From assembly GCF_013167455.1 (NCBI RefSeq), contig NZ_CP038329.1: DNA of 1,538 bases; one strand, given 5' to 3'. Below are positions 921-1,289 of this stretch, piece by piece (the first letter of the stretch is position 1; the number at the start of each line of letters is the position of its first letter). The translations under genes were made by a program, and so were the position numbers. The DNA is from Escherichia coli O157:H7. GTDB lineage: Bacteria > Pseudomonadota > Gammaproteobacteria > Enterobacterales > Enterobacteriaceae. The notes beneath the pieces are model-generated. The model saw only the letters and a program-made list of their open reading frames with translations. It was not told the DNA's origin and made no database searches.

Positions 921-954
921 CGGGATCACCGACAACATGCGAGAGGTGATCCCG
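921..954. repeat. Hairpin, 10-bp perfect arms cgggatcacc / ggtgatcccg with a 14-nt loop, positional counterpart of the GTTATCC...GGATAAC hairpin of pBR322
   Basis: Arms 921-930 and 945-954 are exact reverse complements. It lies immediately origin-proximal to the pas-like block, as the DnaA-box hairpin does in pBR322 (from memory). Confidence 0.5.
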
Positions 955-1010
955 CTCGCCGCAAGTCGATGACCGAGCGTAGCGAGCGAATCGACGAGGA
1001 AGCGGAAGAG
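952..1010 (-). promoter_or_regulatory. ColE1-type primosome assembly site (pas / n'-site)-like conserved block between origin and bom
   Basis: Minus strand reads ctcttccgcttcctcg tcgattcgctcgctacgctcggtcatcgacttgcggcgagcgg, against pBR322 ~2345-2403 (recalled) ctcttccgcttcctcg ctcactgactcgctgcgctcggtcgttcggctgcggcgagcgg. The first 16 nt and the terminal tgcggcgagcgg are identical. The functional label as a PriA-dependent site is from memory of ColE1 literature. Confidence 0.5.
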
Positions 1011-1046: not shown

Positions 1047-1071
1047 GGGGTGTCGGGGTGAAGCCCTGACC
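1047..1071 (+). repeat. Inverted second copy of the 25-bp bom arm (ggggtgtcggggtgaagccctgacc)
   Basis: The reverse complement of 1265-1289 is ggggtgtcggggcgaagccctgacc, matching 1047-1071 at 24 of 25 positions. The two copies are inverted and 193 bp apart. Similarity to bom stops right after the repeat (aagtgggg here versus cagtcacg in bom). Confidence 0.75.
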
Positions 1072-1076
1072 AAGTG

Positions 1077-1114
1077 GGGAATGTCTGAGTGCGCGTGCGC
1101 GGTCAGACATTCCC
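1077..1114. repeat. Hairpin with 12-bp perfect stem (gggaatgtctga / tcagacattccc) and 14-nt alternating purine-pyrimidine loop (gtgcgcgtgcgcgg)
   Basis: Arms 1077-1088 and 1103-1114 are exact reverse complements. The loop 1089-1102 is two tandem gtgcgc units. It sits just inside the inverted bom-arm copy. Function unknown; a single-strand initiation site or relaxosome accessory site is a guess. Confidence 0.5.
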
Positions 1115-1228
1115 ACATCCTGTCCCGATTTCTGAGGCGTTTTAACGGTGAACGGACGGCAAAAACATGATCGAGCGTGGAGAGCGCGAAATCGGGCAAA
1201 ATCACGGCTGACGAGGCTTGCAGAGGAG

Positions 1229-1289
1229 TAAGCCAGTATACACTCCGCTATCGCTACGTGACTGGGTCAGGGCTTCGCCCCGACACCCC
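1229..1289 (-). other. ColE1/pMB1-family bom (oriT) including the conserved nic region
   Basis: Minus strand reads ggggtgtcggggcgaagccctgacccagtcacgtagcgatagcggagtgtatactggctta, against pBR322 bom (recalled) gggtgtcggggcgcagccatgacccagtcacgtagcgatagcggagtgtatactggctta. About 58 of 61 positions match by eye, including an identical 41-nt run tgacccagtcacgtagcgatagcggagtgtatactggctta. By analogy with ColE1, where I recall nicking mapped to CTGG/CTTA, the nick would fall on the minus strand between plus coordinates 1233 and 1232. Confidence 0.8.

Follow-up and report, generated by a model that had tools for sequence, protein, structure and literature searches.

The DNA analyzed here (the window, 1538 bp at its full length) is a complete circular plasmid. 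Several records of 1538 bp match it from end to end with 99.6-99.9% identity, pSCU-482-3 for example, and at least 80% of the window is covered in 327 plasmid records. In MOB-suite pSCU-482-3 is typed as Col(MG828) and 'mobilizable', with no relaxase listed. The plasmid has a single gene, repA, that encodes a Rep protein of 158 amino acids and spans the ends of the window; the protein matches the Pfam family HTH_36 and, weakly, RepL. Inspection of the open reading frames together with a Pfam search revealed no relaxase or accessory gene on the 1538-bp plasmid. The plasmid belongs to the small cryptic E. coli plasmids of the pKL1/Col(MG828) type, and the window covers it entirely. The Rep and origin of pKL1 have been described (PMC3832669). 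Such plasmids are common, and 330 of 5426 complete E. coli genomes (~6%) hold at least 80% of the region 1000-1330.

The features that concern us are summarized in Table 1. The two outermost boxes are the arms of an inverted repeat, each 29 nt long, in which 27 of the 29 positions (93%) are complementary and 185 nt lie between the arms. Within the core 25-mer, 1047-1071 agrees with the reverse complement of 1265-1289 at 24 of 25 positions. Scoring +1 for a match and -2 for a mismatch, the arm pair reaches 23 (27 - 4). This value was calculated by hand, as the shuffle script gave only the top pair of the window, which is a palindrome at 1386 with a score of 28. The best inverted repeat in each of 300 dinucleotide-preserving shuffles had a mean score of 11.4 (sd 1.9, maximum 24). 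The inverted repeat is confirmed as real. A first-pass annotation of this DNA had noted two inverted copies of the bom arm around the nic site, and they are indeed present. It had also named an assembly artefact as a way in which the repeat could be spurious; that is ruled out by the 327 plasmid records and 330 genomes.

Two further observations of that annotation were borne out. The hairpin that follows the left arm has a 12-bp stem (12/12) and a loop, GTGCGCGTGCGCGG, composed of 13 alternating purine and pyrimidine bases, with one extra G. The perfection of the stem is due to A1105, a base in the NikA-side arm that is private to the window. The nearest record and the oriT of the helper plasmid discussed below have C at this position, and there the stem is 11/12. 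The distance from nic to the TTCCGCTTCC block is longer than in a ColE1-type reference, being ~224 bp in the window and ~100 bp in ColE1, i.e. ~125 bp of extra DNA. Our comparisons with ColE1 rest on a real mbeA+ record (L013), and a pBR322 sequence served as a visual aid only. The ColE1 record has one arm only.

Table 1. Features of the 1538-bp window. A slash within a sequence marks a predicted nick.
Feature	Position	Strand	Basis
Block homologous to ColE1 TTCCGCTTCC / primosome-assembly-like region	952-1010	-	83% over 60 nt to ColE1
Left arm, box of putative I-complex-type oriT, GGGGTGTCGGGGTGAAGCCCTGACC + AAGT	1047-1075	+	Unchanged or almost so in the 13 aligned I-type oriTs
I-type inverted repeat	arms 1077-1088, 1103-1114; loop 1089-1102	+	Fold; paired changes
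I-type nick region, ACATCCTG/TCCCG	1115-1127	+	8 nt after inverted repeat; predicted nick 1122/1123
Spacer between nick sites	1128-1228		Col(MG828)-specific; small indels
ColE1-type nic-proximal region, ...CAGTCACGTAGCGATAGCGGAGTGTATACTGG/CTTA	1229-1260	-	ColE1 identity; predicted nick 1233/1232
Right arm, box of putative ColE1-type oriT, GGGGTGTCGGGGCGAAGCCCTGACC + CAGT	1261-1289	-	ColE1 alignment; local hairpin predicted
repA (sole gene)	1519-1538, continuing 1-459 over the circular junction	+	Annotated helix-turn-helix protein

We used the region 1000-1330 (331 nt) as a BLAST query against 72,556 plasmids. At least 5000 records match, and most of those sampled match 1229-1288 only. Large conjugative plasmids form another set, whose matches are confined to 1046-1131, made up of the left arm, the hairpin and ACATCCTGTCCCG.

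The left half is 94.2% identical over 86 nt to the oriT of pO111-CRL-115, an IncK2/Z plasmid (MOBP, MPF_I). In that plasmid 15 nt separate the matching block from the first codon of nikA (annotated as mobA), the relaxase gene nikB comes after nikA, and the box is on the nikA side of the inverted repeat. A matching locus is found upstream of nikA/nikB in four more I-complex plasmids (L010, L011, L012 and L022). The oriTs of the R64/RP4 type have the layout box, inverted repeat, 8 nt and then ATCCTG, and the left half of the window has the R64 layout. Its repeat ends at 1114 and is followed by ACATCCTG (1115-1122) and TCCCG, so that the nick motif ATCCTG + Y is present. We take the nick to lie between 1122 and 1123 of the plus strand, as placed in R64/RP4-type nick regions. 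This polarity is consistent with the organization of the helper plasmid, because in pO111-CRL-115 the antirestriction (leading-region) genes are 3' of the oriT and nikAB are 5' of it.

In an alignment of 13 I-type oriTs CACATCCTG is invariant and the repeat is variable. The left arm itself holds a small hairpin (1052-1059 paired with 1063-1070, loop GAA), folding as single-stranded DNA predicts a local hairpin there, and its pairs never vary in the 13 oriTs except at one C/T position. The fold of 1044-1130 has z = -5.2. PMC4743918 names the conserved core of R64 'nick region and repeat A'. By analogy, the nick-proximal arm at 1103-1114 would correspond to repeat A, the arm bound by NikA; what is said here about repeat A, about the two inverted-repeat sets of R64 and about its exact nick follows secondary citations and established background. 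On the strength of this homology and layout we assign the left half to the I-complex oriTs (R64 NikA/NikB type), as a putative second oriT with all its parts.

The right half reads as a ColE1-type oriT on the minus strand. The segment 1229-1288, GGGGTGTCGGGGCGAAGCCCTGACCCAGTCACGTAGCGATAGCGGAGTGTATACTGGCTTA on the minus strand, extends from the box to nic+4. It is 98.3% identical over 60 nt to L013, and up to 100% identical over 60 nt to the corresponding sequence of many mobilizable ColE1-like plasmids. The ColE1 nick is reportedly at CTGG/CTTA. The order of elements is shared with ColE1, in that the TTCCGCTTCC block comes after nic in both. By analogy with ColE1 we take this block to have a primosome-assembly (pas)-like function. 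The mbeA-D genes are absent in cis, and by its homology the right half is a probable orphan ColE1-type oriT, as in pBR322. On the 3' side of nic the window departs from ColE1 after 4 nt, and the ColE1-type copy could be weak or dead if MbeA requires more downstream sequence.

The spacer that separates the two nick regions has no match outside the Col(MG828) family among the matches listed. In the family alignment it varies by an 8-bp indel and by a 21-bp tandem duplication in L009 (NZ_CP116488.1). The duplicated sequence, GCGAGGCTTGTAGCGGAATAA, adjoins the ColE1-type nic and aligns with ~1207-1228 of the window.

A box of ~25 bp is shared by the two halves. It is single in ColE1, and single beside nikA in the I-complex plasmids, so what was called the bom arm is native to both oriT families. 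The inverted repeat is then present because both families begin with this common box and the two oriTs are oppositely oriented. Given that the box is native to each family and single in each, a duplication within the plasmid is unneeded. The oriTs are convergent, with the predicted nick sites ~110 bp apart. Our preferred explanation is that two face-to-face orphan oriTs of different families lie on a plasmid that encodes only Rep, and that the plasmid is mobilized in trans by two types of helper. We give this reading a probability of about 0.82. The first-pass annotation had considered a second relaxosome binding site, and this came closest of its three interpretations, but the second site is an I-complex oriT rather than a copy of the ColE1 bom.

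The two routes of transfer would be as follows. In the first, a co-resident conjugative plasmid resembling IncK2/Z would act in trans through its NikA and NikB. NikA is expected to bind 1103-1114, and NikB to cut the plus strand at 1122/1123. This strand would then be transferred in the 5' to 3' direction, its last parts to enter the recipient being the repeat and the box. In the other route MbeA and MbeC would come from a ColE1-type plasmid, again in trans, and the coupling protein and the pore would be those of a conjugative plasmid. The minus strand would be nicked at 1233/1232, and would lead with the spacer followed by the pas-like block at 952-1010. The bom of pBR322 is mobilized in a similar manner, by Mob proteins acting in trans and the pore of a conjugative plasmid. 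Both IncF and IncI1 plasmids are reported to mobilize ColE1-type plasmids efficiently. The ColE1-type route is demanding, requiring a chain of three plasmids. The plasmid probably hitches rides with two kinds of helper plasmid, judging from the homologies of its two oriTs.

The arrangement is characteristic of the family. Both oriTs are present with equal spacing in 7/7 Col(MG828) members examined (1454-1865 bp). The first-pass annotation had held that an inverted arm at constant spacing in standard ColE1 relatives would make it a normal family feature; it is normal for Col(MG828) but not for ColE1 itself. The seven small plasmids contain three subtypes of the I-type repeat. The subtype of the window, GGGAATGTCTGA, has its best conjugative match in pO111-type K2/Z plasmids (94.2%). 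A second, GTAATCGTAT, is found in L004 and L006 and is best matched by pSTEC2018_166-c and related plasmids (98.8%). The third, the I1-like GCAAxxGxAATAxCGTC of L005, L007, L008 and L009, is best matched by I1/Igamma-K1 plasmids (90.9%).

The variation of the repeat preserves its pairing. In 13 I-type oriTs, both members have changed in eight of the 12 pairs, and overall 94.6% of cells remain paired. The outer repeat pairs give a similar picture, 5/7 having changed on both sides with 97.8% of cells paired in the 13 sequences. When the 3' partner was slid by 1-3 columns as a control, 30-44% of cells were paired over the whole structure. Differences among the NikA proteins of the helpers lie in the N-terminal half, with hardly any from residue 66 on, and the N-terminal variants track the repeat subtype. 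The three NikA variants are WP_001291058.1, WP_001291056.1 and WP_001283946.1.

An identical Rep (WP_000469298.1) is encoded by plasmids of all three subtypes. Identity along the backbone is mostly 90-100%, and it dips to 52-62% at ~1057-1110, the sharpest of several mosaic dips. By these comparisons a helper-specific repeat has been swapped like a cassette between the constant box and the nick region, with the ColE1-type oriT remaining constant. The subtype repeats match different helper lineages, and the IncI/K/Z-type site appears to have been retuned accordingly. The left arm of the I1-like repeat in L005 and L007 is degenerate (~14/17 by eye), so not every copy is necessarily optimal. Nor need the cognate helper always be co-resident, as the host of the nearest record, strain SCU-482, contains IncF and MOBQ Col156 plasmids and has no I-complex or ColE1-type MOBP5 plasmid (one host genome, n = 1). 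A K2/Z helper with the matching oriT is carried by another strain of the SCU-482 cohort, in a different genome.

A further I-type subtype, GTAAATGTAT / ATACATTTAC with the nick region ATCCTGCCCC, occurs at 4001-4081 of a 284-kb Salmonella plasmid (L003, CP121420.1). This is a large and nearly unannotated IncFIB plasmid, to which typing assigns two MOBP relaxases and MPF_I.

Other explanations of the paired arms can be weighed against this evidence. The 27/29 repeat encloses ~185 bp that are absent from ColE1, and the arms could in principle be the terminal inverted repeats of a MITE-like non-autonomous element inserted between the ColE1 nic and the pas block. Yet there is no target-site duplication, the flanks reading ...GGATGC, arm ... 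arm, AAAAGG... without a direct repeat, and the boundaries of similarity coincide with those of the oriTs. The right arm belongs to the ColE1-type oriT and is found in ColE1 too, while the left arm is continuous with a full I-complex oriT in large plasmids that lack the second arm. Moreover, the unit 1047-1289 is matched only in the Col(MG828) family among the matches listed. The inserted element proposed in the first-pass annotation is therefore unsupported, and we consider it extremely improbable. The same annotation had suggested the footprint of relaxase-mediated recombination between oriTs. As a rival this would make the locus a functionless scar, left either by relaxase site-specific recombination or by homologous recombination between the boxes. 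NikB is reported to catalyze recombination between oriTs. In the composite record L020 (2967 bp) one junction falls at an arm, which is consistent with recombination there, and the I-type repeat acts as a swapped cassette between conserved anchors. However, relaxase recombination joins oriTs at nic to give one hybrid, and here there are two intact nick regions of different families. Both halves are conserved throughout the family and the symmetry of the repeat is kept by compensatory change, which favors selection rather than decay. The recombination footprint thus lacks support, and a scar without function seems improbable to us.

Pairing of the arms with each other might itself have been selected, if a snap-back stem of 25-29 bp in the transferred strand served to join its ends or protect the DNA. 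The long snap-back structure envisaged in the first-pass annotation is predicted in silico. When 1040-1296 is folded as single-stranded DNA, the arms pair with each other for either strand (z = -7.8 and -6.6). However, the arms do not co-vary in the family. Their differences are uncompensated, since position 13 of the left arm varies between T and C opposite a right arm that stays the same, and in L006 only the right arm has changed. Each arm is explained by its conservation in its own oriT family, where it is single, and nicking yields a 1.5-kb strand with one arm at each end. A convergent layout also occurs in another small plasmid (L015), with nick motifs ~290 bp apart. Selection for pairing between the arms is therefore very unlikely. 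The interpretation given in the first-pass annotation is overall partly supported, and we favor the reading of two convergent orphan oriTs of different families.

The box has a resemblance of its own that bears on whether it could be cut. It resembles the nic hairpin of CloDF13, with GGGTG/GTCGGGCGTGAGCCTGAC in CloDF13 compared with GGGGTGTCGGGGCGAAGCCCTGAC in the box, and local alignments of the box with CloDF13 outscore 494-500 of 500 shuffles. A CloDF13 nick at GGGTG/GTCGGG is cited in PMC5935869, and this reported position falls inside the aligned box. The box might then be a third kind of nick site, each arm being cut by CloDF13-type (MOBC) relaxases. If this were true the 1.5-kb plasmid would be a substrate for three relaxase families, two of them acting on both strands. 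In a weaker version the two boxes might pair in the transferred strand and so aid termination. We regard the box as an unlikely nick site for the CloDF13 relaxase family. The CloDF13 nic box, GGGTGGTCGGGCGTGAGCCTGAC, lies at 9745-9775 of the CloDF13 record (L014) and aligns with 1047-1071 and 1289-1265 of the window; the TTTTG upstream of it is found in ColE1-type copies too.

The window shares its replicon family with pKL1 (1549 bp, from E. coli KL4), the prototype of Col(MG828). The plasmid L004 has the size of pKL1 (1549 bp), shows 94.8% identity with the window when multiple plasmids are roughly aligned, and encodes a Rep identical to that of window-type plasmids. Compared with this pKL1-size form the window is 11 bp shorter, and its repeat is of the pO111 IncK2/Z type GGGAATGTCTGA, not GTAATCGTAT. 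A curated collection described as experimentally validated has an entry 'oriT_pKL1', which is assigned to the R64 family of oriTs and said to be shared by conjugative and mobilizable plasmids. We found no description of a convergent pair of ColE1-type and I-type oriTs in the pKL1 family in the searchable literature, outside which the 1997 pKL1 paper lies.

The closest published parallel in layout is pBuzz, a rolling-circle plasmid of 1982 bp with no relaxase gene and two inversely oriented oriTs, which is mobilized by an I-complex (B/O) plasmid using relaxase in trans (Moran & Hall 2019). The window is similarly relaxase-less with two oriTs in inverse orientation, but the replicon is different, with a Rep of the pKL1 type (HTH_36, weak RepL), and the plasmid is smaller (1538 compared with 1982 bp). 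L015 (NZ_CP055222.1, 2275 bp) is pBuzz-like. Its oriTs are also convergent with the boxes outermost, as in the window, but both are of the I-complex type, whereas the window has one of ColE1 type (MOBP5) and one of I-complex type. Having oriTs of two families implies two relaxase systems, acting on opposite strands. The two oriTs of L015, a small unannotated plasmid, are at 1464-1550 and 1822-1905 and carry another repeat subtype, GTGTTTGTTTGA.

Small plasmids without mob genes that have two oriTs of different families are also known, namely pEC156, pKPN2 and pSe-Kan. In pEC156 both orphan oriTs are functional, with F and R64drd11. The window resembles these three plasmids in this respect, but they combine an F-type with an R64-type oriT on a ColE1 replicon, and their oriTs are not a convergent pair bracketed by boxes. 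ColE1 and R64 themselves each have a single oriT with the cognate mob or nik genes in cis, whereas in the window both copies are orphan. This type of arrangement is already known, and would not surprise a plasmid specialist. Current understanding is unchanged, because publications on pBuzz, pEC156 and the oriT mimics of staphylococci already set out the principle. What the window offers is a compact natural case of oriT mimicry combined with helper tracking, and an explanation for the possible spread of a very common tiny E. coli plasmid that has no transfer genes. Mobility predictions based on relaxase genes will miss such plasmids.

Recombination between the arms might also invert the segment 1076-1260. 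A synthetic inverted junction was spanned only by L020 and by no standard record of the family, and we rejected this possibility. L020 (NZ_CP138471.1, 2967 bp) is a composite Col(MG828) plasmid with features at 50-192, 1386-1446, 1744-1768 and 2671-2967. It contains four boxes, two ColE1-type nic regions and one I-type nick region, together with a 143-bp inverted duplication of the pas-like block that is joined at a box. It is either the product of recombination at the box or an assembly artefact.

Some other features of the plasmid were observed. The window differs from the nearest database record by only two bases, A1105 and T1421. The latter is A elsewhere, and is at the center of the strongest palindrome of the plasmid. 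This lies at 1386-1433, ~90 bp upstream of repA, and consists of two overlapping repeats, TGTCGCATCC..GGATGCGACA. It is probably a RepA operator or the origin repeats of pKL1-type plasmids. An Rfam search of the whole window (E up to 1) gave a sole match, to a miRNA-like family on this palindrome, which we discount as due to chance. A scan of the window for promoters and terminators gave nothing that exceeded the expectation from shuffles. Directly beyond the right arm, at 1292-1320, there is a perfect 12-bp hairpin, AAGGGCGTTGCG / CGCAACGCCCTT. It has no T-run and so is not a classical terminator. L004, L005 and L008 keep the hairpin, differing at one or two bases, and unrelated DNA takes its place in L006, L007 and L009. 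The segment 460-1000 is the non-coding, GC-rich half of the plasmid. Within it, ~793-986 and ~651-829 recur in intergenic DNA of an IncX4 plasmid, where each record has three copies, and of an IncN plasmid, in both cases near replication genes, and these sub-segments may be single-strand initiation or origin-associated modules.
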